Source: Leptospira biflexa
Lineage (GTDB): Bacteria; Spirochaetota; UBA4802; UB4802
Length of the DNA: 64,000 bases
Direction of reading: 5' to 3'
Assembly: GCA_020721905.1 (NCBI GenBank)
Contig: DYLU01000001.1
Span: 32,439-96,438, forward strand
The notes under the pieces are model-generated. The model was given only the letters and a program-made list of their open reading frames with translations, did no database searches and was not told the origin of the DNA. Positions 1-64,000 of the stretch are shown piece after piece. The translations under genes and the position numbers were made by a program. The first letter of the stretch is position 1. Each line of letters opens with the position of its first letter.

Positions 1-224
1 AAGTCGATGTATATTTAATATACCCTCACAAAAAAAAGGAAAGCTCATTAACGCAATAAACAGGAATAAAATTTTAAAAGAATGCATGCATATAGTCTTT
101 TGACAGTCTTACTTCATTTTTTAAGTAATATTTGTGTATTCAGGCCATTCTTAGCAAAAAATATTTTTTGGTGATTTTTGCCTTAATAAGAAGTGTTTGG
201 GCAGGAAAATACTATATTGACCTT

Positions 225-1130
225 TCACAATGTAATCATACCTTTACTTACAAACTTTTTACACTGCTCATATTCTTCATGAGTCATCCATCTGGTTAAT
301 GCTTCATCTATTTTTGCATCACTTCCAATCTTCATGCATTTCTCAGGCCATAATGGATTATACCGTAAAAGCTCAACGGTATCAACACCATGCTGGTGCA
401 AAAACTGTGCAATGCCTGTAAGATTCTTTTCCGTTGCAGTAATTCCCGGAACAAGCGGAGTGCGCACAACAACCTGAATTCCCATGCTTTGCGATAGCTG
501 TATAAGCTTTTTGAAATTTGATATTATTTTTGTATTTGAAACGCCGCAGTACTTTTTGTGGTCTTCTTCATCAATTAATTTAATATCATAATACACGGTG
601 TCACAATATGGTGCAATGCAGGTTTCAAATTCATCCCAGTTAAAATATCCGCTTGTTTCCACAAGGGTATGAATTGCATTATTTTTACATTGCTTCAATA
701 GCTCTGATGCAAATGGTATCTTCATCAAAGGCTCACCACCTGAAAGGGTCACACCGCCACCTGACGTATCAAAAAACGGCTTATCCTTTAAAACATGCTG
801 CATTATATCTTCAACAGTCAAAAGCTTGCCTACGGTACTCATAGCACCTGATGGGCACACATCAACACATCCAAAACACAGCGTGCATTTTTTTCTATCC
901 ACAAAGTTTTGATTGTGCACATCAATAGCATGTTCAGGACATACCTTTGCACAGCTCAGGCAGGCAATACATTCATTTTTATCCCAGGATAATTCAATGG
1001 CAGCTTTTTTACTTTCTGGATTATGGCACCATACACAGTTTAGAGGACAGCCTTTAAAAAACACAACTGTTCGTATACCGGGACCATCATCAAGTGAATT
1101 GCCTTTAATTTCCAGTATTAATGTTTTCAT
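225..1130 (-). CDS. Glycyl radical enzyme activating enzyme (radical SAM; two extra ferredoxin-like 4Fe-4S clusters)
   Basis: Translation has the radical SAM motif GCPLNCVWC (Cx3Cx2C) near the N-terminus plus two CxxCxxCxxxCP ferredoxin motifs (CIACLSCAKVCP, CTLCFGCVDVCP). It starts 18 nt downstream of the GRE gene on the same strand. Confidence 0.85.
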   Translation of the reverse strand: MKTLILEIKGNSLDDGPGIRTVVFFKGCPLNCVWCHNPESKKAAIELSWDKNECIACLSCAKVCPEHAIDVHNQNFVDRKKCTLCFGCVDVCPSGAMSTVGKLLTVEDIMQHVLKDKPFFDTSGGGVTLSGGEPLMKIPFASELLKQCKNNAIHTLVETSGYFNWDEFETCIAPYCDTVYYDIKLIDEEDHKKYCGVSNTKIISNFKKLIQLSQSMGIQVVVRTPLVPGITATEKNLTGIAQFLHQHGVDTVELLRYNPLWPEKCMKIGSDAKIDEALTRWMTHEEYEQCKKFVSKGMITL

Positions 1131-1148
1131 ATATTTTTTATCGTACGT

Positions 1149-4136
1149 TTATATTCCGTATTCAGCACGCTCAATGAGTTCTAATTGCATCTGACGGTTT
1201 AATGTAACAAAATATGCATTGTATCCTGAAATACGCACAATAAGGTTGCGATAGTTTTCGGGATGGGCCATTGCATCGCGCAATACTGCCGATGTAACCA
1301 CATTCATCTGCATCTGCATCCCACCCAATGTGAAATAGGTCTTCACATACGAGAACATATCATTCACGGTCTTTTCCCGTGATTCTATTGCAGAAGGCAC
1401 AACCTTAACATTAAAAGCGATATTATTGGTAAGGTTAACCGGAACCAATTTTGCAACATCCCTGATATTGTCTAACAAATTTTTTGAAGCAAACGGCTGA
1501 GGTGTTAAACCTGGTGTAAACGGTTTTCCTGCCAATCTTCCCGAAGGGAGAGCCCCGGTAAGCGTGCCAAAGGCAACATGATTTGACATTGACCAGAAGC
1601 CCGTAGTATATATACCACCACGGTAATGCGGAATGCCGGCAAAATAATCATGCGCCCATTTAGCAATCCTGTTTGCCATTGCACAGGCTTCTTCATTTCC
1701 TGAACCAAACAGCGGAACTTTTTTGTGAACGGTTTCAAGCAATACCGTATCATTTTGAAAATTACTGTCAATAGCTTTCTTTATATCAGCAAATGTGTAT
1801 TTCTTTTCGTCATATATAAGCTTTTTTATAACCATCATGGAATCAGTTACGTCAGCAAGTCCAATGATTGCAGTACCGGAGCTATTATACTTTGCCCCAC
1901 CTTCTGTTACATCCCTGCCTTTTTCTAAACAGCCTTCAATCAAGGATGAAAGTAGCGGTGTTGGCCGCAGATATTTATGAGCTTCAGCCAGCTTATTATT
2001 ATAATCAATTGACTGGTCAATAATAAAGGCAAACTGTTTGGTAAATGCATCAAAGAAATCATCAAAGGTTTTAAAAACGCCATCTTCAGGCTTTCCCGTC
2101 TTTGGTCCAATATCCAGCCGTGTCAGTGGATGATAGCCATTGTAAAGTGCCATTTCCAGAGCTGCCACCATATTCATCATCTGCATGTTGGTATGTCCAA
2201 AATGCTTATGCGAGAGTGTGGGTTCAACACAGCCTGTTGCTGACCAATCACGAATATCATTGATGTCATACCCCATTGGGGTCAGAGCCTTTATGATTGC
2301 AGCATCATTGTGCATTGATGGAGTAGCTGCGGTAATAAGGTTTACTTCACAAAGGCGTTTTAAATAGGTATCACTGTTGACACCTGGCATATAGCGGGCA
2401 TTGACGTTGGGATCACGAATGGCAAGCATCTCTGTTACTTTTAAGAAAATATACGTCATATCATTAACTGCGTCTTTGCCATCCGGTGTTACACCACCTA
2501 ATGTAATAGCCTGATCAGATGAACTTCCGCCAAAATAGAAGTTGGCTAAATCAGGAGTAAGGGGAAAATGGTCGGTGCAGCGCATATAAAAATCGGCAAC
2601 AAGTTCTATTGCCTGTTTTATATATTCTTCCCGCTTCTCTGGCGGAGTGTTTTTCATATCATTGATAAAATATGGCTGTAGCCACTGATCAAGTCTACCC
2701 AGTGAAAGACCAGCATTTAAGCTTTCGTTGTGTAGTGCAATCCAGGTAATCCACATTGCGGTCAGTGCTTCATGCAGCGTTGTGCATGGATTGGCTGGAA
2801 TACGGCTGCAAATATCAGCTATTTTCAGCAATTCCTGTTTGCGTATTAGATTCGTTTCCTGGTTACTATCGACGAGAGCCTGCTGTGAAAGATTTTTTGC
2901 ATACGCATTAATACCTTCAAGGCAGGCAATCATAGCATTAAGAAGATTTCGTTTACTCTGCGAGCAATCTTTAGTAAGCTCGGCTTTTATTTCATCAATC
3001 ATCCCTGCTGTTCCCATTGCCATCACTTTTGGAAAATCTGGAATGGTATGTGAGATAGTTGCCTGCTTCCAGTCAAAGTACAGGGCAAACCGTTCATCAA
3101 GCTGCTCACACAGGGGATTATTATATTTTTCTCTGACCCATTCCTTAAAATTGCGATGCAACCAGAATGGCAGTATTTCAAAATGTAAGACTTCACGAAT
3201 CCGGTCATCAATATCAAAAGGATTGTATGTTCTGTATGGAATGGTGAGCAATTCATTCCATATCATGATGCCGGTACTGTCAGGAAAAATGGGGCTTCCT
3301 ATGGGTTTGCTGGTGGTTGTTCCCGGCAACAGTGAATCCTTTTGTATCACGGGCTTTTTATGTTCCATCATATATTTATATGCATATGCATTGCGCAGCA
3401 CCGGCTCCCAGGGGTTGCCGTTATTGTCCTTGTCAAAGCCATGTTCCCTGTACCACTGAGTTAAATAAATTGCCCTTTCAGCACAGATAGCTGGTTTTTT
3501 AGTTAAATGGTCATTAAGAAATTTTTTGATTCGCGGGAAATCATCAAGACAATAGTGCGAAAGATACGGGTCCTCCAGAAATAAAACATTGGGTTCTTCT
3601 TTTTTTCCTTTAAGGCGCTCTTTTCGTCTTTTTGCAATCTCGTCGCTCAGTTCTTTTTGTGGTTTTGGATTTTCCTTTTTAACCTTCTTTTCATCAATCT
3701 TTCGCTCCTTTTTCATTGCACGTTTCTGAACATTATGAAAAAGCAGTGAAATAAAAAATGAGAATATATTGGAATAGGTAATACTGCCATCAATACGCAC
3801 ATCGCTCTTTAACAGCATATAAATAATATCGGTGGGTGTTCCCAGTAATAGCTTACGTGCAGCATTTTCATTTTTAAAAATCAAAATGGCATTAGCATCA
3901 GGGGCGATAGTTCCTGAAACGGTAACCCTGCCATCAATAAAAGAAATGCTGCAGACAATAGCATTGTCTTCCGTACGCAAACCAATGATAAAATTGAGAT
4001 AGCCATCTTTTGTTTTAAGGTAGCGATTGAGTGATGTGCGGTTATTAAAATTAAATGCAATGAATTTTAAAAATGATTTTATAAAAATAGAAGTGCCCAT
4101 TGTGCTGAATCTGCTCTGTGATGTGAAAAGTAACAT
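1149..4136 (-). CDS. Glycyl radical enzyme (PFL-like, Cys-x-Glu dehydratase/lyase/decarboxylase class) with an N-terminal SCP2-like domain fused through a Lys/Glu-rich linker
   Basis: C-terminal glycine-radical motif RVSGYNAYFVTL. Active-site loop is GCVEP (Cys-x-Glu). Residues ~12-135 resemble the SCP2 sterol-carrier fold (ILIFKNENAARKLLLGTPTDIIYMLLKSDVRIDGSI aligns with SCP2 [32 protein letters not shown]). The reading frame is open from the first ATG, which has a GGAGGG SD 5 nt upstream; an alternative internal Met at 3716 has no SD. Confidence 0.8.
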   Translation of the reverse strand: MLLFTSQSRFSTMGTSIFIKSFLKFIAFNFNNRTSLNRYLKTKDGYLNFIIGLRTEDNAIVCSISFIDGRVTVSGTIAPDANAILIFKNENAARKLLLGTPTDIIYMLLKSDVRIDGSITYSNIFSFFISLLFHNVQKRAMKKERKIDEKKVKKENPKPQKELSDEIAKRRKERLKGKKEEPNVLFLEDPYLSHYCLDDFPRIKKFLNDHLTKKPAICAERAIYLTQWYREHGFDKDNNGNPWEPVLRNAYAYKYMMEHKKPVIQKDSLLPGTTTSKPIGSPIFPDSTGIMIWNELLTIPYRTYNPFDIDDRIREVLHFEILPFWLHRNFKEWVREKYNNPLCEQLDERFALYFDWKQATISHTIPDFPKVMAMGTAGMIDEIKAELTKDCSQSKRNLLNAMIACLEGINAYAKNLSQQALVDSNQETNLIRKQELLKIADICSRIPANPCTTLHEALTAMWITWIALHNESLNAGLSLGRLDQWLQPYFINDMKNTPPEKREEYIKQAIELVADFYMRCTDHFPLTPDLANFYFGGSSSDQAITLGGVTPDGKDAVNDMTYIFLKVTEMLAIRDPNVNARYMPGVNSDTYLKRLCEVNLITAATPSMHNDAAIIKALTPMGYDINDIRDWSATGCVEPTLSHKHFGHTNMQMMNMVAALEMALYNGYHPLTRLDIGPKTGKPEDGVFKTFDDFFDAFTKQFAFIIDQSIDYNNKLAEAHKYLRPTPLLSSLIEGCLEKGRDVTEGGAKYNSSGTAIIGLADVTDSMMVIKKLIYDEKKYTFADIKKAIDSNFQNDTVLLETVHKKVPLFGSGNEEACAMANRIAKWAHDYFAGIPHYRGGIYTTGFWSMSNHVAFGTLTGALPSGRLAGKPFTPGLTPQPFASKNLLDNIRDVAKLVPVNLTNNIAFNVKVVPSAIESREKTVNDMFSYVKTYFTLGGMQMQMNVVTSAVLRDAMAHPENYRNLIVRISGYNAYFVTLNRQMQLELIERAEYGI

Positions 4137-5781: not shown

Positions 5782-6756
5782 TTATTGTTTTTCACAATAC
5801 CGCTTATAGGCCTCTTCTATGGCATCAAGCCACTGCTTGCGTATACCTTTGGGACTTATGACCTCAGCATATTTTCCATAGCGCAACACTTTTCCTAACA
5901 ATTCCTGAGGATGATGTACCGGCAATTGTAATTCAATATAATACCCATACTGAACATGTGAACCTTCTTTGATTTGTTGTTTGTTATGCCATATCTGCTT
6001 TCGTACAATATTGCACACAGGTTCATAAAAACGCACACAAACAATTTGACCTGTTTTCCCTTTGTAAATGCCATAGGTTGATTTAATGAACTCCTGTATT
6101 TCATTGGCAGTCAAGTGTTTGGATCGTTTTTTATTTGTATGCTCTGTTTGTATAATGCGGGACAATAAAAAAGTACGTATGCCTTTTTTATCTTCATCAT
6201 ATGCAATAACATACCATCTACCTTCATAATGTATAAAATGTTCAGGGGCGATAGTTCTTGTAGTAAGCTTCCCCTGTGCATCAGAATAGTGAATAGTAAC
6301 AACATAATCATTTCGCAGTACAGAAAACAACTTACTAAAAAGGGTCATATCTAATTCTTCCCACTCATCGATTTCGTACGTTATTTTTGAAATAAGAGGC
6401 AAGAACTGCGGTAAAATTGATCGCCTGATTATATCCGAAATACTTTTATCAACAAACGGAAAGTGTGTTGGACTGTTCATTAATTTCATTAAAAATACAT
6501 AGAACAGAAGCATTCGCTCATCACGATAGGTAAAATAATCAAACGGCAATGAGTAGCAATACCCTTTTTTATGAGGTATATACTGTATGGGGGCATTCAT
6601 TCTTTCTCTGAGATATTCAATATCACGTTTCACCGTACGTGGTGTAACCTCAAATTTACTGGCTACCTCCTGTACCGTAACTATTCCTTTTTCTCGAATG
6701 GCGGTGTCTATATACTGCAACCGTTCATTCTGGCTCAATGCAAACCTCTGCTCCAC
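5782..6756 (-). CDS. WYL-domain transcriptional regulator (wHTH-WYL-WCX architecture, PafBC/BrxR/CapW-like)
   Basis: N-terminal HTH IVTVQEVASKFEVTPRTVKRDIEYL and a central WYL motif region RWYVIAYDEDKKGIRTFLLSRI. Length 324 aa. Confidence 0.7.
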   Translation of the reverse strand: MEQRFALSQNERLQYIDTAIREKGIVTVQEVASKFEVTPRTVKRDIEYLRERMNAPIQYIPHKKGYCYSLPFDYFTYRDERMLLFYVFLMKLMNSPTHFPFVDKSISDIIRRSILPQFLPLISKITYEIDEWEELDMTLFSKLFSVLRNDYVVTIHYSDAQGKLTTRTIAPEHFIHYEGRWYVIAYDEDKKGIRTFLLSRIIQTEHTNKKRSKHLTANEIQEFIKSTYGIYKGKTGQIVCVRFYEPVCNIVRKQIWHNKQQIKEGSHVQYGYYIELQLPVHHPQELLGKVLRYGKYAEVISPKGIRKQWLDAIEEAYKRYCEKQ

Positions 6757-11909: not shown

Positions 11910-13520
11910 ATGAATAAAAAAGTTAAAAAAGTATTATTGGTATATCCGGAAATTCCCCTGACATATTGGAGCTTTAAATATTCACTGGAATTTATAGGCA
12001 AAAAATCCGTATTCCCGCCATTAGGACTTCTTACTGTTGCTGCCATATTACCACGGGAATGGGAAATTGAACTTATTGACTTAAATACTACAACTCTTGA
12101 TCCAGAAATTTTGCCGCAATATGATATGGTTTTCCTGTCAGCAATGCTTGTTCAGCAAGAATCTTTTGCTACAGTAGCCAGTTTATGTAAACATTACAAT
12201 GTACCTGTGGTTGCGGGAGGACCGTATCCAACATCTTTATGGCAAACTATCCCGGATGTAAGTTATTTTGTGCTTAACGAAGCTGAAGTTACATTACCAC
12301 TATTTTTACATGATTTGCAGTATGGGAACCCCAACCACGTATACAGCTCTGATGAAAAACCGGCTCTTGATAAAACACCTGTACCTCGCTTTGATATTAT
12401 TGATTTAACACCCTATGCCAGTGTACCATTACAATTTTCACGAGGATGCCCCTTTAACTGTGAATTTTGCGATATTATCTCACTTTTTGGCCGTATACCA
12501 CGCACAAAATCACCAGAACAATTCCTTGCAGAACTTGATGCTGTATATGCAACTGGATTCAGGGAATCAATCTTTATTGTAGATGATAATTTTATTGGAA
12601 ACAAAATAAAAGCAAAGGAACTACTTAAAGAAATAATTCAATGGCAAAAAGAACATTCCTATCCTTTTTCATTTCAAACTGAGGCAAGTGTTAACTTAGC
12701 ACACGATAAAGAACTTATGGAACTGATGTATAAAGCTGGTTTTGATATGGTATTTTTGGGAATTGAAACGCCGGTAATTTCTTCTCTGGAAGGCGCCGGG
12801 AAAACACAAAATACCAAAGAAGATTTGCTTTCAAATGTTGCAACCATTCAACAGCATGGAATGGAAGTCAGTGGAGGATTTATTGTAGGATTTGATGATG
12901 ATCCCGAAGATGTGTTTGAATTACAAAAGAATTTTATTCAAGCCTCAGGTATACCAATGGCAATGGTTGGTATATTAGATGCTCTTCCTCATACACGCTT
13001 ATATAATCGCTTGCAACAGGAAGAAAGATTGTTATGCGAGTCAAATGGCAATAACACACATAAATTAGCACCAAATTTCATACCAAAAATGCCAGTAAAA
13101 ACACTCATCGATGGCTATATTAATCTATTAAAAACAATTTACCAACCAAAAAACTATTTTTCACGCTGTATTACATTACTGCAAAGAATTCCTGATAAGC
13201 GAATGGTATACCGACAATTTACTTTCAAAGAATTTAAAGCGCTTATACTATCGCTTATAAAACAGGGCTTTTCAAGTTATAATATACATTACTTTAAATT
13301 TTTACTGACTACATTACGCATACGTCCAAAGCTTTTTTCCGAAGCTATTGCATTTGCAATCAAAGGATACCATCTTTTTAAAATTACTGAAATATTGCTG
13401 GATGAATATAATAAATCCTTGAAAGAAGAAGAACATACTGATACATTGGCACCATCATTTGCTGACACATTTACATCCAGTACTGACAGCACTGGATTAG
13501 CACATACTGATAATCCATAG
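11910..13520 (+). CDS. B12-binding-domain radical SAM protein (class B) with a DUF4070-like C-terminal region
   Basis: An N-terminal cobalamin-binding-like Rossmann region is followed by a radical SAM cluster motif CPFNCEFC (Cx3Cx2C). 536 aa; SD AGGAG upstream. Confidence 0.7.
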   Translation: MNKKVKKVLLVYPEIPLTYWSFKYSLEFIGKKSVFPPLGLLTVAAILPREWEIELIDLNTTTLDPEILPQYDMVFLSAMLVQQESFATVASLCKHYNVPVVAGGPYPTSLWQTIPDVSYFVLNEAEVTLPLFLHDLQYGNPNHVYSSDEKPALDKTPVPRFDIIDLTPYASVPLQFSRGCPFNCEFCDIISLFGRIPRTKSPEQFLAELDAVYATGFRESIFIVDDNFIGNKIKAKELLKEIIQWQKEHSYPFSFQTEASVNLAHDKELMELMYKAGFDMVFLGIETPVISSLEGAGKTQNTKEDLLSNVATIQQHGMEVSGGFIVGFDDDPEDVFELQKNFIQASGIPMAMVGILDALPHTRLYNRLQQEERLLCESNGNNTHKLAPNFIPKMPVKTLIDGYINLLKTIYQPKNYFSRCITLLQRIPDKRMVYRQFTFKEFKALILSLIKQGFSSYNIHYFKFLLTTLRIRPKLFSEAIAFAIKGYHLFKITEILLDEYNKSLKEEEHTDTLAPSFADTFTSSTDSTGLAHTDNP

Positions 13521-14928: not shown

Positions 14929-17625
14929 TCAATAAGCCTCAGCCCAGTTTTTGGCCCAACCCACATCTACAACAACCGGTACGTCAAGTGTGATTGCACT
15001 TTTCATTTCACTTACCACAATGCCTTCAACAATATCCTTTTCATCTTCAGGAACTTCAAACACCAGTTCATCATGTACCTGAAGAATCATCCTGCTTTTC
15101 AATTTTTTATCAACAAATGTCTTGTGAATGGCAATCATTGCCACCTTGATCATATCAGCCGATGTTCCCTGAATGGGTGTATTGATTGCAATTCGTTCTG
15201 CACCTTCGCGCCTGAACTGATTGCTTGATGTAATTTCGGGGATATAGCGCTTTCGCCCCAATAATGTTTGCACATACCCATATTTTCGGGCAAAAGCAAT
15301 GGTACTTTCAATGTACTCTTTTATCTTTGGATATGCACTGAAATATTTTTCAATAAATCGTGTTGCATCTTCAAATGAAATATCAGCCTGCTGTGAAAGC
15401 CCATACGGCGATACACCATAAATAGTAGCAAAGTTTATAATCTTTGCCTGTCTCCGCATTGCATCCGTAACCCTTTCCAGTGGTACATTGAACACTGCTG
15501 AGGCTGTTTGAGCATGAATATCTATACCTTTATGAAACGCTTCAATCATGGTGGTATCCCCTGACAGATGTGCAGCTAAACGCAACTCAATCTGTGAATA
15601 ATCAGCTGATAACATAAGGTAATCTTTTTCCACTACAAAGCCTGCCCGTATATTTTTGCCAAATTCATCACGCACCGGAATATTTTGCAAATTGGGATCG
15701 GATGATGAAAGCCTGCCTGTTGCAGTCACTGTCTGATTAAAGGATGTGTGAATTCTACCGGTTTTTGGATTAACCAGTGCAGGCAGTGTATCAACATATG
15801 TTGTCTGTAATTTGCTAAGTGTTCGGTACTCAATCAAATAATCAATAATCTCGTGCTGTCCCTTCAAAGCTTCCAGCACCTGAATATCAGTGGAAAATCC
15901 AGTTTTTGTTTTCTTCACGGGTTTAAGCCCAATCTTTTCAAATAATATGTGCGATAGTTCCCGCGTTGAGTTGATATTAAAAGAAAGCCCTGCCAGTGAG
16001 TAAATTCTTTCTTCTGTTTGTTTAATTTTATGCGATAGTTCCTTAGATAGAGTTTCAAAATGTTCAAGGTCAATCTTTACCCCGTAATATTCCACGTACG
16101 CAAGCACGGTAACAAGCGGCATTTCAACATTGAAAAACAATTCAAGCAGGTTTTCCTTTTCTAACTTTTTATTCAGTATATGGTATAAACGCAACGCAAT
16201 ATCAGCATCTTCAATAGCGTAGCGCGATAGCTTCTGCATTGGAACCTGCGTGATATGCTGTACCTTTTTACCCTCTTTTACCAGTTCATCATATGTTATC
16301 TTTGTATAATTGAGATATTCTGATGCCAAATCATCTAAATTATGCCGCCGTAATCCGGGATTGAGTAAATATGAGGCAACCATGGTATCAAAATAAATGC
16401 CTGTAAGCGTAATACCACAGTTGAGCATAATCAGCATGTCATACTTTATATTCTGACCAATTTTCTTTATTGTTTCATCTTCAAGGATAGTTTTAATTTT
16501 TAGAAGCATTTGATCTTTGGGTACTGCATTATAGCTCCAGAGGGAACTATCGCCCACTGGAATAAACCATCCTGACTCAGGTGCAACAGAAAACGATACG
16601 CCCACAAGCTCTGCTTCCATTGGTTTTGATGATGTAGTTTCGGTATCAAATGACACAAGTCCTGCTTTTTTTATTGCTTCAATAACATTGTTCAGCGAAT
16701 CAATATCAGTTACTGTGGAATATCCTGCTATTTCCTTAACTGAAATTGATTTTTCTGTAACGCCCAATTCTCGGGCAATTGAATCCATTTCTAAAATTTT
16801 AAAAATCTGCCTTACCTTTTCATTGTGCAGGTCAGGGGTCAGAGCCTTTTCAATGGAAAGTGGCAATGGTATATCAGTCTTTATGGTCACAAGCTGGCGA
16901 GAAAGATATGCTGAGTCTTTCTGTGATTCAATCTGTTCCTTGATTTTCCCGGTAAGCTCATGCAAATGCATATAAATATTATCTAACGTTCCATACTGCT
17001 GCAAAAGTTTTGATGCAGTTTTTTCGCCAATACCTTTTACACCCGGGATATTATCAACAGCATCACCGGTGAGTGCCATATAGTCAATGATTTGCTCAGG
17101 TTTCACGCCTATTTTTTCAATAACAGTATCAGCATCAATGCTTTCAAATTCAGTGATGCCTTTTTTCCCGGCATAAATTGAGACATTCCTATCGCTCAAA
17201 AGCTGGTAAGCGTCCTTATCACCGGTAACAAGTACCACTCTGTATCTATCCGAATACTGACTAGCAATAGAACCAAGCACGTCATCAGCTTCATAATCAT
17301 CCATAATGACAACGGTAAATCCCATATCCCGCAATATTACTTTGATTTCTTCAATCTGGCTGCGCAAGTCATCTGGCATTTTTGCTCGCTGCGCTTTATA
17401 CTCAGGATAAATAGAAAATCGAAAAGATTTTTTTGGCGGGTCAAACGCTATTATTGTGTAATCAGGCTGCTGCGTTTGCAATAAACGAAGTAGCATCCTG
17501 AAAAAACCATAGATTGCTGATACATTTTGCCCTTTGCTATTAATTAAAGGATTCCGTTGAAATGCAAAATATGCCCTATAGCATAATGCATGACCATCAA
17601 CTACGTATAGTGTTTTTCCCTGCAT
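14929..17625 (-). CDS. polA: DNA polymerase I
   Basis: 5'-3' exonuclease N-terminus (LYVVDGHALCYRAYFA), a 3'-5' exonuclease domain, and polymerase motifs RRQAKIINFATIYG and HDELVFE. 898 aa. Confidence 0.95.
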   Translation of the reverse strand: MQGKTLYVVDGHALCYRAYFAFQRNPLINSKGQNVSAIYGFFRMLLRLLQTQQPDYTIIAFDPPKKSFRFSIYPEYKAQRAKMPDDLRSQIEEIKVILRDMGFTVVIMDDYEADDVLGSIASQYSDRYRVVLVTGDKDAYQLLSDRNVSIYAGKKGITEFESIDADTVIEKIGVKPEQIIDYMALTGDAVDNIPGVKGIGEKTASKLLQQYGTLDNIYMHLHELTGKIKEQIESQKDSAYLSRQLVTIKTDIPLPLSIEKALTPDLHNEKVRQIFKILEMDSIARELGVTEKSISVKEIAGYSTVTDIDSLNNVIEAIKKAGLVSFDTETTSSKPMEAELVGVSFSVAPESGWFIPVGDSSLWSYNAVPKDQMLLKIKTILEDETIKKIGQNIKYDMLIMLNCGITLTGIYFDTMVASYLLNPGLRRHNLDDLASEYLNYTKITYDELVKEGKKVQHITQVPMQKLSRYAIEDADIALRLYHILNKKLEKENLLELFFNVEMPLVTVLAYVEYYGVKIDLEHFETLSKELSHKIKQTEERIYSLAGLSFNINSTRELSHILFEKIGLKPVKKTKTGFSTDIQVLEALKGQHEIIDYLIEYRTLSKLQTTYVDTLPALVNPKTGRIHTSFNQTVTATGRLSSSDPNLQNIPVRDEFGKNIRAGFVVEKDYLMLSADYSQIELRLAAHLSGDTTMIEAFHKGIDIHAQTASAVFNVPLERVTDAMRRQAKIINFATIYGVSPYGLSQQADISFEDATRFIEKYFSAYPKIKEYIESTIAFARKYGYVQTLLGRKRYIPEITSSNQFRREGAERIAINTPIQGTSADMIKVAMIAIHKTFVDKKLKSRMILQVHDELVFEVPEDEKDIVEGIVVSEMKSAITLDVPVVVDVGWAKNWAEAY

Positions 17626-23245: not shown

Positions 23246-25213
23246 TTATTTGTTTTTTTTAGTTCCAAATAATTCTTCAATAGCCAATTCTTTTAGTTTA
23301 GTAGCAGTTGGGCCGCCAGTTTCAGGTTCCCATCCGGTTATAACATACAATTCATTGAGCAGTTCATTAATGGGAACTGTAACCCCTTTTAATGGGCCTT
23401 CCTGTAGTGGTGGCTTGCCCTGTGCACGATCAGGGATAATTGTGTTCTTAACATATAATCCTTCCCGTACATTGAAAGCTTTTCGCATAGCAAGGATACG
23501 CTCACCGGTAGTTAAATACTCATCGGCAGGCAAATCCCATCCAGTCACTGCGTTAATATAATCAACCAGTGGTATTGAACCACTTAAAAAACCAAACTGG
23601 CACATACCACAGCCGTTAAAAAGATTGGCAAAATACATTGATGCTGCTGTCAGTGTTAAGCGTTTTGCAAAGCTACTGTTTGCAGTTTTCAGCATTTTCT
23701 TAACCCTGGGAAATTGCTTTTTAGTCCTGTACAGATGATTGTATAAATTTGATGCAATGGTATGGCGCCCTGGTGTTGCTTCAGAAGAATATGTAACAGC
23801 AAACCCATCATCCAGCCGGCTATCATGCATGGGAAGCTCCTGACCGCCGGCATGAATGGCAAAGCTTTCAGAACCTTTGCCTATTTTTTTAGCAGCACGC
23901 ATAACTCCATCAGCCAGTATGTTGCCAATTCCTTTCCTGTTAATTATCATCTCTGTTAATGCAAGTATGTCTTTAGCTTTGCCCCAGCCTAACTCCAATC
24001 CGCCCGTATCTTTCTTTGTTAATATCCCATGCTCATAGCATTCAATAGCAAATGCAACAGCAGTACCAGTAGATATGGTGTCAATACCAGCCCTGTTGCA
24101 TAATTCATTTATTTCCATTATTGTATCTAAATCATCAAGTAAAAGCATACCGCCAAAAGAACCCAGAGTTTCATATTCCGGCTTGTGTCCTTCAGTGCCC
24201 TTATATCTTCCGGCTTTTATGTCAACAATGCCACCACATCCAAGCGGACATGACTGGCATGCATATCGCTTCTTTTGATGTGCTACCACGCTTTCATCTG
24301 AAATTTTTTGAACACCTGGAAAATCTGAATACCCAACACCAGCCCAGTTTTTGATTGGCATATCACCGGTAAACGCAGAATACACTGTTGTTCCGCTTGT
24401 ACCATACCGTTTAAATATTTCACGTACTGTAGAAGGCTGTGTTGGTACCGATACTCTTGTCCGTGCTATAATCTGGCTTAAAAAATTCATCATATTGACT
24501 GTGGCTTTATCGATGGGACTGGTTGACTTAAAACCTGATAAAAATTTTTTATTAATTTCCTTTAAAACATCAGGTTTTGCAACCGGTATTTTCTTTGTTC
24601 CTTTTATGGCAATTGCCTTTAACTTCTTGCTTCCCATGACCGCGCCCAATCCACTGCGTGCAGCAATTCTTCCGTCATCGGTTACAATACCTGATATGAG
24701 CGATAGTTTCTCTGCAGCAGGCCCTATGCAGGCAACCTGATACTTATCATCTTTAAGTTCTTTTTTTATGAGTTCTTCTGTTTCAATAGCATCCTTCCCC
24801 CACAACTTTCTTGCATTTTTTATCTGTATTTTACCATCATCGATGACTATATATACCGGCGTTTTTGCCTTGCCGGTAACAAATAGTGCATCAAATCCGG
24901 CGCGCTTGATTTCTATGGAAAAGAACCCTCCGCAGTTACTATCGCCCCATCCTCCGGTTAATGGCGATTTACCAACCACCATAAACCTCCCGGCAAAATA
25001 CGCACCGGTACCGGTTAAAAGACCTGAACAAAATCCAAGTACGCTTTCAGGCGATAATGGATTGACTTTTGGCTTCTGCAATTGTGCAATAATGGCAGCA
25101 CCAAGGCCATAGCCTGCTAAATACTTTTTGTAAAAATCATCAGAAAGTTTTTTAATAGTGGATTTACCAGTAGACAAATTTATTATGACATATTGACCCA
25201 TATAACCGCCCAT
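23246..25213 (-). CDS. Aldehyde:ferredoxin oxidoreductase (tungsten-containing AOR family)
   Basis: AFOR_N-type N-terminus (VIINLSTGK...GGWGDSNCGGFF), 4Fe-4S ligand motif CQSCPLGC (CxxCxxxC), and the pterin-binding motif GIDTISTG. Confidence 0.85.
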   Translation of the reverse strand: MGGYMGQYVIINLSTGKSTIKKLSDDFYKKYLAGYGLGAAIIAQLQKPKVNPLSPESVLGFCSGLLTGTGAYFAGRFMVVGKSPLTGGWGDSNCGGFFSIEIKRAGFDALFVTGKAKTPVYIVIDDGKIQIKNARKLWGKDAIETEELIKKELKDDKYQVACIGPAAEKLSLISGIVTDDGRIAARSGLGAVMGSKKLKAIAIKGTKKIPVAKPDVLKEINKKFLSGFKSTSPIDKATVNMMNFLSQIIARTRVSVPTQPSTVREIFKRYGTSGTTVYSAFTGDMPIKNWAGVGYSDFPGVQKISDESVVAHQKKRYACQSCPLGCGGIVDIKAGRYKGTEGHKPEYETLGSFGGMLLLDDLDTIMEINELCNRAGIDTISTGTAVAFAIECYEHGILTKKDTGGLELGWGKAKDILALTEMIINRKGIGNILADGVMRAAKKIGKGSESFAIHAGGQELPMHDSRLDDGFAVTYSSEATPGRHTIASNLYNHLYRTKKQFPRVKKMLKTANSSFAKRLTLTAASMYFANLFNGCGMCQFGFLSGSIPLVDYINAVTGWDLPADEYLTTGERILAMRKAFNVREGLYVKNTIIPDRAQGKPPLQEGPLKGVTVPINELLNELYVITGWEPETGGPTATKLKELAIEELFGTKKNK

Positions 25214-28023: not shown

Positions 28024-28223
28024 AACAATATCCCTTTTATTGTATTCTGCAAATTATATATCTCACTTTTAATATATCTATCTGACTTATACATTCAAAT
28101 CCATCAGGATAAAAATACATCAAAAGAATATATTAATTTGCAGTACCTACTTCAGTTTAATAAAGTATAACCATTCGGTATTTTTTCAAGTAATTTTTTA
28201 TAAAAATAATAAATATTTAGGTT

Positions 28224-28679: not shown

Positions 28680-28681
28680 CA

Positions 28682-28761
28682 GTAACTATCGCCTAAACTT
28701 TTTTAATATTTTACTTGCATTAAAAAGCTTTGCAAGTTTTATTTTTGCAAGCGATAGTTAC
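28682..28761. promoter_or_regulatory. Nested palindromes in a divergent promoter: GTAACTATCGC...(CTTGCA-N11-TGCAAG)...GCGATAGTTAC
   Basis: An inverted pair of the window-wide over-represented motif sits 57 bp apart and brackets a second inverted repeat. One copy directly abuts the ATG of the hydrogenase-protease gene. Confidence 0.5.
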
Positions 28762-28776
28762 TAAAGGATTATTTCA

Positions 28777-43374: not shown

Positions 43375-45249
43375 ATGCAACATCATCAGAAAGTATTCTT
43401 CATAGACCTTTCCACCGGTTACTATCGCCTGGCACGATACCCTATTGGTGATTTTTTTGGGCCTGTTGATCTGGGCCTTCACATTGCACAGCGCTACTAT
43501 ACCACCAATATCGGCGTTGGAATGTTAGCTGGTTCAATCTTCCCTGGCTCAAACCGCCTTTTTATCAATGGATATTCACCCTGCTGGAACAGCTTCTTTA
43601 TTTCATCTATGGGTGGTGCAGGCTTAGTGTTTGATAACTTAGGTATAAACATGATTGCTCTTTCCAAAAAAGCCCTAACACCTTCGGTGCTGTATCTTAA
43701 CCGTATTCATGGCGAAGAAATTGAAATTGAAATAAAACCCATTGATATATTCAGGATATGGGAAAGCGGACATGGTGGTGTGTATTCCCTGATGCATGAA
43801 GTTTTAACCATGTTTGCCGGTAAATATTTAACTGATCCGCGCGTATTAGCCACTGGTCCTGCTTCATATGCAACCGATTTTGGCGCACTGTGTTCAGCAT
43901 CTGTGAAAGACGGCACGCTCACCTGGGTTGATACATGGGCCGGGCGTGGCGGATTTGGATCAAAGCTTTTCCGTGAACATGGTATTGCCGCTATTATTTA
44001 CGGCGGTACATATATCGATGAAGACTTCAGAGACCGTAAAGTTGCCGACGAATGGTTTATTGATAAATACAGCAAAAAGCTGGCAGCCAAAGACTTAGAA
44101 GCAACAACTAAGTATCGCTTTGACCCGCAGTTTAATACCGGTGGTACATTTGGCGTTAATTTTGCTACTATTGGCGGGAAGCTGCTTGCATTTAACTATC
44201 GCTCAATTTATATGACCGAAGAAGAAAGACTTGCCATTCATCAAAAGCTTGTTGTTGATCATTACCTGAAACAATTTAATGAAGAAACTATCTCCACCAA
44301 AAGCATGAAAACCTGCGGTGAGCCCTGTACTGCCGTTTGCAAAAAGATGCGCGATATTTACAAAAAAGATTACGAGCCGTATCAGGCAATGGGACCTCTA
44401 TGCGGTATTTTTGATCAAAGATCAGCTGAGATGCTGATCCACAAAGCCGATATGTATGGGTTTGATGCCATTTCAGTTGGTGGTGTGCTGTCGTGGCTTA
44501 TGGAATGCCTTGATAAAAAATTAATAAAACCTGAAGAAGCCGGTGTAACTCATCTTCCTGTTTTTTCGCATGTTAACTTCAGTGCCCAAACTGATTCAAA
44601 ACACAACGCTGAAATTGGAAGCCAGCTTTTAGATACAATCATTCATAAAAAAGGAATCCTTGATTTCACCGAGGGGGCACGCAAATTTGCCCGCAAATTA
44701 GCTCGAGAAAAAAGCAAGGATATAATTGATTGCTTTGTGTATAACGCCAACGCACGTAAAGGCTGGATTGTTCCCAACCAGTACTGGGTTCCAGGGGTAC
44801 TATCGCCCATGCCTATTATGGGTAAGTATTACATGTACTACGGGTATGATTTTTTACCGCCACGTGAGTTAGGCCGCAAAAACGCACATCGTATGATCAA
44901 GGAGCTTATGCTTGACAACACCGGTTTTTGCCGTTTTCACAGGCTGTGGGCTGAAGACATGATCCCTGAAATCATCAATTCACTGTATGGTATGCATAAA
45001 GAATTTTTAACAAATCTTAACATGACCGCAAGCAGAATTAACAGCCGCAACGTATCAATTTACTGGGAATCGACTCGAAACATTGATTTTATTAAAATGT
45101 ATTTAAAGCGACAGCATGATGTTGAAAACGTCAATGATAAAGAATTACTGCACTGGATCATGCAATTTGAACAAAACCCGCACGAAGCTGCATACAACTA
45201 CTGGTTTGAAATTTTAAAAGGTGTGCATGAATCATTACGTGAATTTTAA
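43375..45249 (+). CDS. Divergent aldehyde:ferredoxin oxidoreductase-family protein (non-canonical Cys spacing)
   Basis: The AFOR_N-like N-terminus (KVFFIDLSTGYYR...GMLAGSIFPGSNRLFINGYSP) and DxxG motif region (DMYGFDAISVGG) resemble AOR. The cluster motif is CGEPCTAVC (Cx3Cx3C), not the canonical CxxCxxxC. Confidence 0.55.
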   Translation: MQHHQKVFFIDLSTGYYRLARYPIGDFFGPVDLGLHIAQRYYTTNIGVGMLAGSIFPGSNRLFINGYSPCWNSFFISSMGGAGLVFDNLGINMIALSKKALTPSVLYLNRIHGEEIEIEIKPIDIFRIWESGHGGVYSLMHEVLTMFAGKYLTDPRVLATGPASYATDFGALCSASVKDGTLTWVDTWAGRGGFGSKLFREHGIAAIIYGGTYIDEDFRDRKVADEWFIDKYSKKLAAKDLEATTKYRFDPQFNTGGTFGVNFATIGGKLLAFNYRSIYMTEEERLAIHQKLVVDHYLKQFNEETISTKSMKTCGEPCTAVCKKMRDIYKKDYEPYQAMGPLCGIFDQRSAEMLIHKADMYGFDAISVGGVLSWLMECLDKKLIKPEEAGVTHLPVFSHVNFSAQTDSKHNAEIGSQLLDTIIHKKGILDFTEGARKFARKLAREKSKDIIDCFVYNANARKGWIVPNQYWVPGVLSPMPIMGKYYMYYGYDFLPPRELGRKNAHRMIKELMLDNTGFCRFHRLWAEDMIPEIINSLYGMHKEFLTNLNMTASRINSRNVSIYWESTRNIDFIKMYLKRQHDVENVNDKELLHWIMQFEQNPHEAAYNYWFEILKGVHESLREF

Positions 45250-45264
45250 GGGGCGATAGTTACC
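45250..45264 (+). repeat. Copy of the over-represented GGGGCGATAGTTACC motif, ending at the hslO start codon
   Basis: See the motif finding; one of ~23 strong copies in the window. Confidence 0.7.
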
Positions 45265-48139: not shown

Positions 48140-49019
48140 GGGGATGATATTTATGATATAATTCTTTTAAACGTTCTATTGTGGTGTGAGTATATTTCTG
48201 TGTTGTAGAAATACTCGCATGCCCCAACATATCCTGCACAGCCCTGATATCAGCACCTCTGTTGAGCAATTCGGTTGCAAAGCTGTGTCGCAACACATGC
48301 GGAGTAACCGATTTCCATAATTGTGCCATGTTTGCTCTTTTATCAATAATATAAAAAATACCCCGTGTTGTCAATCGTTTGCCATTATTATTTACAAATA
48401 AGGGATTGGTTAAACAATTGAATTTTTTTTTGCGTTCATTCATATATTCCTGCAATGCCGTGACAGCAGTATCATTCAAAAACACAATTCTTTCTTTTGA
48501 CCCTTTGCCCAGCACCTTTAACCTTCCGGTTTTATAATCACAATCATCAATGTCAGCATATGTTATTTCCGAAACGCGAGCCCCTGTGGAATAGAACACT
48601 TCCAGCAGTGCTTTGTCGCGATAGTCACCAAAACTTTTGCATTCAAATGCAACCAGTGCCTGAATCTGTTCAAAGGTTAAAAAAACCGGCAAACAATTCT
48701 TTTGTTTAGAGTAATGGATGTCGCGGGCAGGATTACCGTTTCTATAGTTATGAAATTCCAGATACTTAAAAAAAGATTTTAACGTTGCAACCTTTCGTTC
48801 AATTGTTGAAAGTTCATTTCCTTTTTCAAAGCAGTAATCAATAAAATCACGTATATCATTTGCTGTTATAGCAGCGATAGTAACTGATTCAGGGTCAACT
48901 GCTTCATATAAAAATTCCATGAATTGATTCAGGTCTTTGCTATATGATTCAACAGTCAGAGGTGAGGCATTTTTCTCAGCAATAAGGTACTGCATGAATT
49001 TATCAATATAGTGATCCAT
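48111..49019 (-). CDS. xerC: Tyrosine recombinase XerC/XerD (CodV-like)
   Basis: Catalytic R...HxxR...Y motifs (TPHVLRHSFATELLNRGADIRAVQDMLGHASISTTQKYTH). Position upstream of hslVU mirrors the Bacillus codV-clpQ-clpY arrangement. Confidence 0.8.
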   Translation of the reverse strand: MDHYIDKFMQYLIAEKNASPLTVESYSKDLNQFMEFLYEAVDPESVTIAAITANDIRDFIDYCFEKGNELSTIERKVATLKSFFKYLEFHNYRNGNPARDIHYSKQKNCLPVFLTFEQIQALVAFECKSFGDYRDKALLEVFYSTGARVSEITYADIDDCDYKTGRLKVLGKGSKERIVFLNDTAVTALQEYMNERKKKFNCLTNPLFVNNNGKRLTTRGIFYIIDKRANMAQLWKSVTPHVLRHSFATELLNRGADIRAVQDMLGHASISTTQKYTHTTIERLKELYHKYHPHAHRRHDDE

Positions 49020-59255: not shown

Positions 59256-59258
59256 ACG

Positions 59259-62829: not shown

Positions 62830-63486
62830 ATGAGGTCCCGTATGAATAAAATAGTAACGTTCATTATTCTTTTTCTAAGTCAACCATTATTTGCTCAGGA
62901 ACTATCGCCCAATTCATCCAATTTATGGACTACCTTTAAGCAGGGTGGAATTCTGATGTGGCCTATACTGTTTTTAGGTATAGTAGGTTTAACCATTATT
63001 ATAGAACGTTCTTTATTTTATTTCAAAATCAAAATATGGGATACAGTACATATTGAAAATAAATTGAACGAATTACTCAATCAAAACACATACAGGTTCC
63101 GTGAAGAAGCAATAGATGACCTTGAAAAAAATATGCAGATTTATTATAATGAGCTGGAAAAAGGACTGGTACTGCTTAATGCTGTGGGTAATTTATCACC
63201 AATCATTGGATTTTTTGGTACCGTGCAGGGGATGATTGCAGCATTTGCTTCAATTGCAGCAGCAACAACAGTTAACGCAAAAGTGGTTGCTGTTGGTATA
63301 CAGATTGCCCTTATTACAACTGCAGGCGGATTATCCGTAGCTGTACCCACATTAGCATTTTACCATTTCTATGTACACATCTTACAAAACATATACGCTA
63401 AAACATCTGAACTTATTATCCTTAAAACAAAACAATTGCCACGATATTCGCAGATTGAAAATACTACAACACTGGAAGGTGTATAA
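62830..63486 (+). CDS. exbB: MotA/TolQ/ExbB proton-channel protein
   Basis: Conserved C-terminal TM block GTVQGMIAAFASIAA...VAVGIQIALITTAGGL. Confidence 0.75.
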   Translation: MRSRMNKIVTFIILFLSQPLFAQELSPNSSNLWTTFKQGGILMWPILFLGIVGLTIIIERSLFYFKIKIWDTVHIENKLNELLNQNTYRFREEAIDDLEKNMQIYYNELEKGLVLLNAVGNLSPIIGFFGTVQGMIAAFASIAAATTVNAKVVAVGIQIALITTAGGLSVAVPTLAFYHFYVHILQNIYAKTSELIILKTKQLPRYSQIENTTTLEGV

Positions 63487-63908
63487 TGTACTGGTTGGGG
63501 CGTAAAAACAAACCACAGCAAAATCAATCACGGCTCATTGAGTTTGATACAACGCCAATTGCAGATTTATCGTTTAACCTTTTGATATTTTTTATTGTCA
63601 CCGCTTCATTTATTATGCGCCAGGGAGTATTCTTAAGCCTTCCATCGTTAAGTGCCGGAACGGTAAAAGTTGAACCATCGCAGGTTATTGAAATTTATCC
63701 TCAGGATAACGGATTTATTGCCGATGGGAAAACGTTAGGCAGAAAAGAACTTTTGCAGTACTTAACGGTACGCAAAATGCAAACAAATGAACCTGTATCA
63801 ATTATTTACATGAAGCCCACTGTCAAATATGAAAGACTTGTAGATACTCTCAGTGCCATTCGTGAAAGCGGTTTATCCAGAATATCATTAAAATATAATG
63901 AAAGGTAA
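63486..63908 (+). CDS. exbD: ExbD/TolR biopolymer transport protein
   Basis: Single N-terminal TM (LIFFIVTASFIM) and an ExbD periplasmic domain. Start overlaps the exbB stop. Confidence 0.75.
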   Translation: MYWLGRKNKPQQNQSRLIEFDTTPIADLSFNLLIFFIVTASFIMRQGVFLSLPSLSAGTVKVEPSQVIEIYPQDNGFIADGKTLGRKELLQYLTVRKMQTNEPVSIIYMKPTVKYERLVDTLSAIRESGLSRISLKYNER

Positions 63909-63911
63909 GTA

Positions 63912-64000
63912 TGGTACAAAGCCCCTTTTTAAAAAAATTGCGTCCGTTTTCCCTGGGAGCTTCAGCAGCTGATATGGCCATGCTGCTTTTGGTATTTTTT
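63912..64000 (+). CDS. Second ExbD/TolR-like protein (5' partial; runs off the window)
   Basis: MVQSPFLKKLRPFSLGASAADMAMLLLVFF matches the ExbD N-terminal pattern. Confidence 0.5.

Follow-up and report, generated by a model that had tools for sequence, protein, structure and literature searches.

What writes one asymmetric 15-base word, GGGCGATAGTTMCYG, into the DNA of an uncultured spirochaete genus at about 20 times its chance frequency? Here we analyse a 64-kb stretch of DNA (the window) from a metagenome-assembled genome of an uncultured member of the Spirochaetota, an organism known from such assemblies only, together with its flanks and with related genomes.

The core of the word, GCGATAGT, has 27 exact copies in the window, 14 on the plus and 13 on the minus strand, or 1 per 2.4 kb (4.2 per 10 kb, which would scale to some 400 exact cores per Mb), where 0.90 ± 0.89 copies are expected from dinucleotide shuffles, 1.25 from an order-3 Markov model and 1.5 from base composition. 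A sequence-only reading of this DNA had put the excess at about 15-fold and had proposed a Markov comparison as a check; within the window this comparison confirms that the hyperabundance is real, and at 18-30-fold it is stronger than had been estimated. At every word length from 6 to 12, GCGATAGT is the most over-represented word of the window, and its 9-mer form GCGATAGTT is found 52 times with at most one mismatch against 10.6 expected. The perfect core is far more frequent than any of its one-mismatch variants, the commonest of which are transitions, including the CpG-decay forms GTGATAGT and GCAATAGT, and none of the one-mismatch precursor words is depleted. A logo of 44 non-orthologous sites is asymmetric over 15 positions, corresponding to a full motif GG-GCGATAGT-T-(A/C)-C-(T/C)-G of about 19 bits, and shows neither dyad nor direct-repeat symmetry. 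Its information falls to zero beyond positions -3 to +17; the flanks of the copies are unrelated (about 0 bits), and the word is therefore not a fragment of a larger repeat. Two subtypes can be told apart, TTCCTG, which is mainly coding, and TTACTG, which is mainly intergenic. The extended forms GGGGCGATAGTTCC, GGGCGATAGTTCC and GCGATAGTTACTG have 2, 4 and 4 exact copies, so that the four copies previously given for GCGATAGTTACTG stand and the three given for GGGGCGATAGTTCC become two. In 18.4 kb flanking the window there are fewer copies, 3, a difference from the window that is not significant.

Our literature search returned only primers and unrelated sequences, and no described motif that matches the word or its reverse complement. 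Presumably GGCGATAG resembles the RfaH ops element, and GTTAC the EbfC site GTnAC. Rfam and tRNA scans of the window gave no match, and a scan of viral contigs with GGGCGATAGTTCCYG gave 56 single matches, which is chance level, with the 8-mer at no more than 3 copies per contig among these.

The exact copies are listed below, followed by the commonest one-mismatch variant, GCGATAGC; L numbers denote relatives. The coordinates of the sequence-only reading agree with ours to within 0-11 nt, except that those it lists at 62505 and 37001 carry one mismatch (TCGATAGTT) and that it missed the exact copy at 13247(-).

1248..1255 (+), GTT-GCGATAGT-TTTCG: glycyl-radical (PFL-like) gene 1149-4136(-), antisense
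3904..3911 (+), GGG-GCGATAGT-TCCTG: PFL-like gene 1149-4136(-), antisense, reads TIAP
6248..6255 (+), GGG-GCGATAGT-TCTTG: WYL/HTH regulator 5782-6756(-), antisense; exact core kept in L005, L006, L007
7015..7022 (-), TGG-GCGATAGT-TACTG: intergenic, 145 nt upstream of ilvB (7168); kept in L003, L007
13247..13254 (-), TAA-GCGATAGT-ATAAG: B12/radical-SAM gene 11910-13520(+), antisense
15951..15958 (+), TGT-GCGATAGT-TCCCG: polA 14929-17625(-), antisense, reads ELSH; GCGATAGC there in distant species
16032..16039 (+), TAT-GCGATAGT-TCCTT: polA, antisense, reads ELSH; stepwise gain from TTGATAGC through GCGATAGC to GCGATAGT
16546..16553 (-), TGG-GCGATAGT-TCCCT: polA, sense, reads GDSS; kept in L003, L006, L007
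19998..20005 (+), AGT-GCGATAGT-TACTG: sensor kinase gene 17597-20041(-), within the first 15 codons, antisense
24700..24707 (+), TGA-GCGATAGT-TTCTC: aldehyde:ferredoxin oxidoreductase gene 23246-25213(-), antisense
24938..24945 (-), GGG-GCGATAGT-AACTG: same aldehyde:ferredoxin oxidoreductase gene 23246-25213(-), sense, reads GDSN
28685..28692 (-), TAG-GCGATAGT-TACTG: intergenic, 5 nt upstream of the hycI start (28679); kept in L003, L007, L008
28751..28758 (+), CAA-GCGATAGT-TACTA: intergenic, 18 nt upstream of the HD-domain gene start (28777); kept in L003, L007, L008
30139..30146 (-), TTG-GCGATAGT-GCATA: DUF1232 gene 30011-30406(+), antisense; lineage-specific gain, GAGACAGT in relatives
31933..31940 (+), GGG-GCGATAGT-TCCTG: radical-SAM gene 31702-33366(+), sense, reads AIVP; kept in L007, L008
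32141..32148 (-), TGT-GCGATAGT-TATCC: same radical-SAM gene 31702-33366(+), antisense; kept in L007, L008
32902..32909 (-), GCG-GCGATAGT-TCCCG: same radical-SAM gene 31702-33366(+), antisense; kept in L007
39232..39239 (+), TTG-GCGATAGT-ATCCA: metallophosphoesterase gene 38916-40085(+), sense
43421..43428 (-), CAG-GCGATAGT-AACCG: AFOR-like gene 43375-45249(+), antisense
44195..44202 (-), TGA-GCGATAGT-TAAAT: same AFOR-like gene 43375-45249(+), antisense
44799..44806 (-), TGG-GCGATAGT-ACCCC: same AFOR-like gene 43375-45249(+), antisense
45253..45260 (+), GGG-GCGATAGT-TACCA: within the 15 nt separating the AFOR-like gene from hslO, 4 nt upstream of the start of hslO (45265)
48618..48625 (+), GTC-GCGATAGT-CACCA: xerC 48111-49019(-), antisense; kept in L083, L084, absent from L095
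48874..48881 (+), GCA-GCGATAGT-AACTG: xerC, antisense; kept in L083, L084, absent from L095
51157..51164 (+), TAA-GCGATAGT-TACTG: intergenic, between gene 51202-51813 and topA (both -), antisense to both; kept in L083, L084
57720..57727 (+), CGG-GCGATAGT-TCTTT: MiaB-like radical-SAM gene 56810-58120(-), antisense; kept in L084
62901..62908 (-), TGG-GCGATAGT-TCCTG: exbB 62830-63486(+), antisense
16224..16231 (+), GCGATAGC: the exact word at the orthologous position of L006
491(+), 40880(-), 47455(-), 59911(-): four further copies of GCGATAGC

At what level does this signal arise? Most copies (22 of 27, 81%) lie inside genes, conserved housekeeping genes among which they occupy five classes of frame and orientation, and the peptides previously read from them (AIVP, TIAP, ELSH twice in polA, GDSS) are correct. 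When codons are shuffled synonymously the 22 coding copies drop to 1.55 ± 1.18, with a maximum of 6 in 1000 shuffles, and the word is realised at 22 of the 78 peptide positions compatible with it (28%), where 1.6 are expected. The copies moreover use the rare codons CTA (6%), TCG (10%) and GCG (8%). The proposal that the signal lies in the DNA and is not a peptide repeat is thus strongly supported. Within genes the reverse complement is preferred (18 antisense versus 4 sense copies, P = 0.004), a bias that is explained by coding compatibility, as 58 antisense and 20 sense positions could carry the word and the fractions realised do not differ (Fisher P = 0.40). We rejected a role at the RNA level or linked to transcription, which the 18:4 bias might have indicated, on the same comparison of fractions. 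Copies are spread along the full length of genes, and a bias toward their 5' ends is not significant (KS P = 0.13).

The word is limited to one genus-level clade. Its presence in relatives, which the sequence-only reading had proposed to check, extends to six other GTDB species (PolA 81-94% identical), at 3.2-5.9 per 10 kb; the word-bearing relatives counted are L003-L008, L083 and L084. It is close to zero in L009, L010, Leptospira and 40 TopA relatives at ≤67% identity, and relatives whose PolA or TopA is ≤67% identical, sisters of the same G+C included, have essentially no copies. The onset is sharp, between lineages about 60% and about 80% identical in PolA. A gene between dprA and topA was considered as a clade-specific factor and rejected, as it is also present in L085, which is without the word.

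Inside the clade, copies are retained above background. In L007, 8 of 12 orthologous copies are conserved against a background of 10.5% (P = 5e-6), and in L003 9 of 11 against 31%; over all orthologous comparisons 27 of 47 are conserved where about 9 are expected, and the intergenic copies at 7015, 28685 and 28751 are kept as well. Core positions are 94-100% identical in orthologous copies versus about 76% in the flanks. In the comparison of copies for depletion in non-conserved segments, 91% of the comparable region aligned. Stepwise and lineage-specific gains are also seen, including some with amino-acid changes at variable residues; the copy at 13247..13254(-) is restricted to the sub-lineage of the window, L003 and L004, and is therefore a gain.

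A second exact 15-mer, GGGGTCAGAGCCTTT, is unrelated to GGGCGATAGTTMCYG, is likewise hyperabundant and behaves in the same way. The two words were also tried as one degenerate pattern, GGGYNANAGYYYY, which we rejected since it yielded only 2 further matches, a chance level.

What could maintain such a word? Judged by its anatomy, a tag resembling a DNA uptake sequence fits best, and we favour this reading tentatively. GG-GCGATAGT-T-M-C-Y-G would then be a genus-specific tag in double-stranded DNA, kept wherever coding constraints permit by a directional force that would act on the DNA itself, regardless of strand, gene and frame. A putative DNA receptor of a transformation machinery would bind the word over its asymmetric 13-15 bp, fragments of same-genus DNA bearing the word would be preferentially taken up and recombined, and this uptake bias (a molecular drive, possibly together with selection) could build up copies by stepwise substitution and restore decayed ones. 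The hyperabundance, its origin at the DNA level, the restriction to one clade, the conservation, the stepwise gains and the lack of strand skew are shown by the data; biased uptake and recombination as the force behind them, and the existence of a receptor, we infer. An intact dprA (51828-52916) is present in the window, as had been pointed out before; DprA is widespread and does not count as evidence for uptake. It was the only such gene seen in 82 kb: Pfam scans of the window genes and Pfam annotations of the two flanks revealed no pilus, comEA or comEC genes. We know of no description of natural transformation in Spirochaetota, and a literature search on spirochaetes, competence and uptake sequences returned work on Neisseria only. 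The hyperabundance of GGGGTCAGAGCCTTT is not predicted by a model with one tag. Furthermore, every sequence-level property listed for the uptake model is also found in HIP1, whose function is not uptake, and uptake-like and HIP1-like behaviour explain the same data about equally well.

HIP1, the cyanobacterial word GCGATCGC, has been unexplained since the 1990s. Its excess is 15-300-fold, and both inside ORFs and between them its sites are retained to a degree that codon and peptide effects do not explain; forms with one mismatch show weak conservation, and certain lineages have variant motifs in its place (PMC5861425). No function is established for it (PMC5861425, PMC4390886). A non-palindromic motif of this kind is nearly as likely as an uptake tag here, and possible on its own terms: some abundant factor of the chromosome, for instance a nucleoid-structuring protein or an orphan methyltransferase, would bind or modify the word, with selection keeping the density of the word for chromosome organisation or maintenance and with no role in uptake. 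The over-representation, conservation and mismatch properties of HIP1 (PMC5861425) are all seen here, the core has GCGAT in common with GCGATCGC, and a second hyperabundant word is easier to fit with several DNA-binding factors; against this stand the asymmetry and length (13-15 nt) of a word whose counterparts are palindromic, its genus-level distribution and the lack of a methyltransferase gene within the window. It is rather improbable that a process of a new type, neither uptake tag nor HIP-like, writes and maintains several exact 15-nt words (GGGCGATAGTTMCYG, GGGGTCAGAGCCTTT) in housekeeping genes in any frame; it might take the form of a packaging or transfer signal of a self-spreading gene-transfer agent or transducing particle, or of short-patch templated conversion from an abundant nucleic-acid template. 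We consider it unlikely that the word is itself functionless and arises neutrally from a mutation or repair bias with sequence specificity, for example repair of the very-short-patch type coupled to a cytosine methyltransferase, or short-patch gene conversion by which the word is restored. The prevalence of transitions and CpG-decay forms among its one-mismatch variants would suit such a bias, as would its stepwise build-up against codon preference. Known VSP-type systems recognise 4-6 bp, however, which an 8-bp core with 15 informative positions exceeds; no precursor word is depleted, and whole sites are positionally conserved over about 30% nucleotide divergence. For HIP1, positional conservation of sites was read as evidence of selection (PMC5861425).

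The sequence-only reading had also considered a global regulator and had noted copies immediately 5' of start codons. This is true for hycI, the HD gene and hslO, where three of the five intergenic copies lie 4-18 nt upstream of the start, and not for topA, whose copy is antisense and 29 nt away. The distance from the hycI start to the copy is 5, 10 and 8 nt in three species, and this variation makes the association look incidental; a special relation to start codons is unsupported. Intergenic DNA, 10% of the total, holds 5 of the 27 copies, about twice the coding density, an excess that is not significant (P = 0.13). Of the inverted pairing of intergenic copies that had been suggested as a check, a single case is found: the copies at 28685 and 28751, 66 bp apart, flank a dyad in the divergent hycI/HD promoter region and are kept in three species. 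A search for hairpins and inverted partners in the window revealed no terminator-type inverted pairs and no copies in terminator-like hairpins. An operator or promoter element of a global transcription regulator could account for that promoter region and for the copies near starts, but with 22 of 27 copies in genes along their full length, and no dyad or direct-repeat symmetry in the word, it is quite unlikely; copies written in rare codons inside polA make no regulatory sense. Still less probable is a polar chromosome motif, either a Chi-like recombination hotspot, as had been raised earlier, or a KOPS/SRS-like guide for a translocase. An asymmetric 8-nt core over-represented on core housekeeping genes would be in keeping with it, but the cumulative GC skew of the window falls monotonically, which indicates a single replichore, and across the window the 14:13 strand split differs from a 75:25 skew (P = 0.008); this lack of strand skew argues against Chi or KOPS, and we reject a Chi-like site. 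An excess of 20-30-fold is also much larger than known Chi or KOPS words show. Finally, the copies do group into two subtypes, as pieces of one dispersed repeat, MITE or IS might; this reading, for which the earlier report had asked for a check, and an artefact of peptide or codon usage are both refuted by the unrelated flanks, which mark an independent word, by the five frame and orientation classes in conserved housekeeping genes, by the loss of the signal upon synonymous shuffling and by the lack of Rfam or tRNA matches.

The gene responsible, be it for a receptor, a methyltransferase or a binding protein, could be sought by presence and absence across the sharp onset, which provides a natural comparison. 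If the uptake tag is true, natural transformation in which own DNA is recognised would follow for uncultured Spirochaetota; if the word is HIP-like, such motifs need not be palindromes. In either case contigs of this genus can be binned cheaply by means of the word.

How does the word compare with known systems? Dispersed repeats such as REP elements, MITEs and IS fragments differ in that the copies here have no flank similarity and no hairpins and lie in CDS in 22 of 27 cases. Chi (GCTGGTGG and its equivalents) and KOPS/SRS are likewise built on an asymmetric 8-nt core enriched in core genome DNA, whereas the present word has no replication-oriented skew (14:13) and a far larger excess. With HIP1 it shares a large excess in coding and non-coding DNA, conservation beyond codon and peptide constraints, and the GCGAT half common to GCGATAGT and GCGATCGC; yet HIP1 and its described variants are palindromic octamers, whereas this word is asymmetric with 13-15 informative positions, belongs to a genus-level clade as opposed to a phylum, and has no known linked methyltransferase. 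HIP1 itself has 0 copies in the window.

To our knowledge, marking of a bacterium's own DNA by uptake sequences occurs in two families only, the Neisseriaceae (DUS, ATGCCGTCTGAA) and the Pasteurellaceae (USS, core AAGTGCGGT). At the level of sequence, the resemblance that the sequence-only reading saw to these words holds for density, use of strands, asymmetry, clade restriction, conservation and in-gene orientation bias, and fails for terminator-type inverted pairs, which are mainly a Neisseria feature. The anatomy used for comparison is that described in PMC2346458, PMC3630211 and PMC1939737, and USS and DUS also show an in-gene orientation bias (PMC2346458). In its sequence, GGGCGATAGTTMCYG is unlike ATGCCGTCTGAA, AAGTGCGGT or ACAAGCGGT (PMC2346458); its exact-core density is two to three times lower than that of classical USS and DUS, a second hyperabundant word co-exists with it, and its host phylum, Spirochaetota, is without known natural transformation. 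Like DUS and USS, it is short and asymmetric, its core sharp and its flanks weaker, with hundreds to thousands of copies implied per genome, equal use of both strands, and copies mostly in genes, where the reverse complement is favoured; related species share it and lineages beyond the clade lack it, its sites are conserved in position, and its one-mismatch forms are only mildly enriched. Besides uptake sequences and HIP1 it thus represents a third hyperabundant word, of unrelated sequence and from a different phylum.

The hyperabundance of the octamer GCGATAGT is real and genus-specific, and this DNA word bears an evolutionary signature shared by uptake sequences and the cyanobacterial motif HIP1; as our search of the searchable literature found no description of it, the word is previously undescribed. 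The 64-kb window contains 27 copies; dinucleotide-preserving shuffles predict 0.90 ± 0.89, an order-3 Markov model 1.25 and base composition 1.5. The 9-nt form GCGATAGTT, allowing up to one mismatch, is found 52 times against 10.6 expected, and in an unbiased window scan the word and its overlapping extensions rank first for over-representation at each length from 6 to 12. No single one-mismatch variant exceeds 5 copies, the commonest being the transitions GCGATAGC, GTGATAGT, GCAATAGT and GCGATAAT; the HIP1 octamer GCGATCGC has 0 copies in the same 64 kb. The sites listed in the sequence-only reading were placed correctly to 0-11 nt, but two are one-mismatch copies, an exact copy at 13247(-) had been overlooked, and the subtype GGGGCGATAGTTCC, credited with three exact copies, has two.

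A logo built from 44 pooled non-orthologous copies (window and relatives) shows 15 informative positions, G G - G C G A T A G T - T (A/C) C (T/C) G, amounting to ~19 bits; a weak (A/G)A signal follows. Beyond this span the information content of the pooled sites is zero and their flanks are unrelated, so the copies form an independent short word and are not pieces of one dispersed repeat such as an IS, MITE or REP element. As a sequence the word is asymmetric; its copies pair as inverted repeats only once (28685/28751), and none of them lies in a terminator-like hairpin.

The window is unremarkable chromosomal DNA that carries housekeeping genes (a glycyl-radical enzyme, ilvBN-ilvC, polA, aldehyde oxidoreductases, hycI, relA/spoT, maf, cstA, hslO, hslUV, xerC, topA, dprA, pgsA, a miaB-like gene, rodZ, lolA and exbBD, among others) and has no RNA family or tRNA matches. 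Coding sequence holds 22 copies and intergenic DNA, roughly 10% of the window, holds 5, a two-fold excess that is not significant (P = 0.13). The coding copies span five frame/orientation classes and encode AIV, GDS, TIA, NYR/YYR or (x)LS(x). Shuffling synonymous codons across all genes leaves 1.55 ± 1.18 copies (maximum 6 in 1000 shuffles) against the 22 observed, and 22 of the 78 peptide positions able to encode the word (28%) carry it, where codon usage predicts 1.6; the copies use the rare codons CTA (6% of Leu), TCG (10% of Ser) and GCG (8% of Ala). Both a peptide repeat and codon usage are thus contradicted by direct test as sources of the word, and the earlier claim of a DNA-level signal holds.

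A special relation to start codons, also proposed from the sequence alone, is not supported. Intergenic copies lie 4 (hslO), 5 (hycI) and 18 nt (HD gene) upstream of starts, and the copy next to topA runs antisense at a distance of 29 nt; among orthologous hycI leaders the copy-to-start spacing is 5, 10 and 8 nt. Because intergenic regions here are short, we consider the association incidental. A conventional operator is contradicted by direct test. In the divergent hycI/HD-gene intergenic region (28680-28776), two inverted copies 66 bp apart flank an ACTTGCA...TGCAAGT dyad, and a promoter-like TTGCAA-17-GATAGT overlaps the right-hand copy. Both copies are kept in three related species (L003, L007 and L008), and this pair may have a local role.

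Cumulative GC skew drops monotonically over the window, indicating a single replichore, and despite this the two strands are used equally (14 plus, 13 minus). The Chi-like site offered as an alternative in the sequence-only reading is rejected, tested as a 75:25 strand skew (P = 0.008), and a polar motif of the Chi/KOPS kind is contradicted more generally. Within genes, the reverse complement lies on the coding strand in 18 of 22 copies (P = 0.004). One sense frame of the word holds TAG, and compatible peptide positions number 20 in sense and 58 in antisense frames; the shares actually used are 20% and 31%, with no difference between them (Fisher P = 0.40). The within-gene bias hence reflects protein tolerance rather than a transcription- or RNA-linked cause. 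Similar bias has been reported for USS and DUS (PMC2346458).

How widely is the word distributed? The exact PolA protein is also encoded in MAG GCA_975271725.1 and a Logan assembly. The closest GTDB relatives are six uncultured Spirochaetota species (L003-L008; PolA 81-94% identical, DNA 70-91% identical across polA and the adjacent gene), and GCGATAGT is found in every one of them, at 3.2-5.9 copies per 10 kb and with an unchanged extended consensus. Further out, in L009 (60% PolA identity), L010 (58%), Leptospira and others, the count is 0-1 per ~22 kb, and these relatives show no equivalent word instead. A metagenome scan with TopA as query gave 3.2-3.4 copies per 10 kb on contigs at 96% identity, one copy in 6 kb at 83%, and essentially none on 39 contigs at 67% or less, equal-G+C contigs included. 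The word is thus a genus-level trait. In the L005 locus (CAZDWJ010000003.1), GCGATAGC and GCGATAGT are equally frequent (5 copies each, against 5 and 27 in the window), and this species may use a relaxed dialect at position 8. No viral contig in a viral-contig scan was dense in the word. Flanks outside the window (left, L220 12453-20906; right, L219 4133-12562) contain 3 copies in 18.4 kb, fewer than the window, although the difference is not significant; two giant genes for Big_5-domain surface proteins lie there, with one copy in ~8.5 kb, and the non-significant deficit may hint that fast-evolving or accessory genes carry the word less often.

At orthologous positions the exact 8-mer is retained at 8 of 12 sites in L007 (background 10.5%, P = 5e-6), 9 of 11 in L003 (31%, P = 7e-4) and 4 of 10 in L008 (10%); the six species, pooled although not independent, retain it at 27 of 47 sites against ~9 expected. 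In the four distant species, identity is 94-100% at core positions 3-7 and at positions 9-10 and averages ~76% in the flanks; variation occurs at position 8 (T or C) and at the degenerate positions. Gains are also visible. In polA the series runs from TTGATAGC (L007/8) through GCGATAGC (L005) to GCGATAGT, through a synonymous switch to the rare codon TCG and, at a variable residue, replacement of Asn by His. At a second gained site the conserved peptide ELS is written with CTA-TCG and the next residue is replaced; a third is perfect in L006 only, with the window one step away. Close relatives share two xerC copies that are missing at 76% DNA identity. Conservation and visible gains together show a persistent directional force that creates and preserves copies, with the strength to outweigh codon preference and, where residues vary, even the identity of the amino acid.

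Four exact 15-mers of a second word, GGGGTCAGAGCCTTT, with unrelated flanks lie in three unrelated genes (a PFL-like gene, polA and, twice, DUF6873).

Copies of GGGGTCAGAGCCTTT in the window
2278-2292, plus strand, exact
16835-16849, plus strand, exact
28221-28233, plus strand, partial
30626-30640, plus strand, exact
30757-30771, minus strand, exact

The four exact copies fall in three frame/orientation classes (KALTP twice, GQSL, KGSDP), against ~0.001 expected, or 0.06 for the 10-nt core after synonymous shuffling; this hyperabundance, too, is at the DNA level. The polA copy is exact in L006, has one mismatch in L003, L004 and L005, and is absent in the most distant pair, L007/8. A single degenerate pattern uniting both words was tested and rejected. 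ATCCTGAAATAC has four exact copies in sense and antisense contexts (1223, 30521 and 34822, plus; 29336, minus; 0.05 expected), and the related TCCTGAAAT is also frequent in relatives and a Leptospira locus; a third, weaker word is one possible reading of ATCCTGAAATAC, a common peptide (PEI) the other. Within a Transposase_31/YhgA-like gene (9398-10486), the 12-nt unit AATCCTTTTTGT stands three times in tandem at 9567-9602, with a fourth TTTGTAATCCTT copy at 37788. Between dprA and topA, 51202-51813 (minus) encodes a membrane protein of 203 aa with two TM segments, which carries a CNFCH motif (haem c-type CXXCH) and matches nothing in Pfam; its gene also occurs in L085, where the word is absent, and is not clade-specific.

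What might the word do? Its asymmetry, length and genus-level onset lead us to favor, tentatively, a tag resembling DNA uptake sequences. A HIP-like chromosomal binding or modification site is a possibility nearly as likely, because we know of no natural transformation in spirochaetes, the 82 kb read showed no competence or pilus gene besides the ubiquitous dprA already seen from the sequence alone, terminator pairs are absent, density is two to three times below that of classical uptake sequences, and a second hyperabundant word accompanies the first. A neutral repair bias is a clearly less likely alternative. HIP1 itself shows 15-300-fold over-representation and a conservation that exceeds what codon and peptide effects explain, its function being unknown (PMC5861425, PMC4390886). 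DNA uptake sequences are asymmetric, 9-12 nt long with weaker flanks, unskewed at ~1 per kb, mostly intragenic with one orientation favored, clade-specific and positionally conserved (PMC2346458, PMC1939737, PMC3630211). The resemblance to them noted in the sequence-only reading falls short in terminator pairs and classical density, but extends to asymmetry, unskewed strands, clade restriction and positional conservation.
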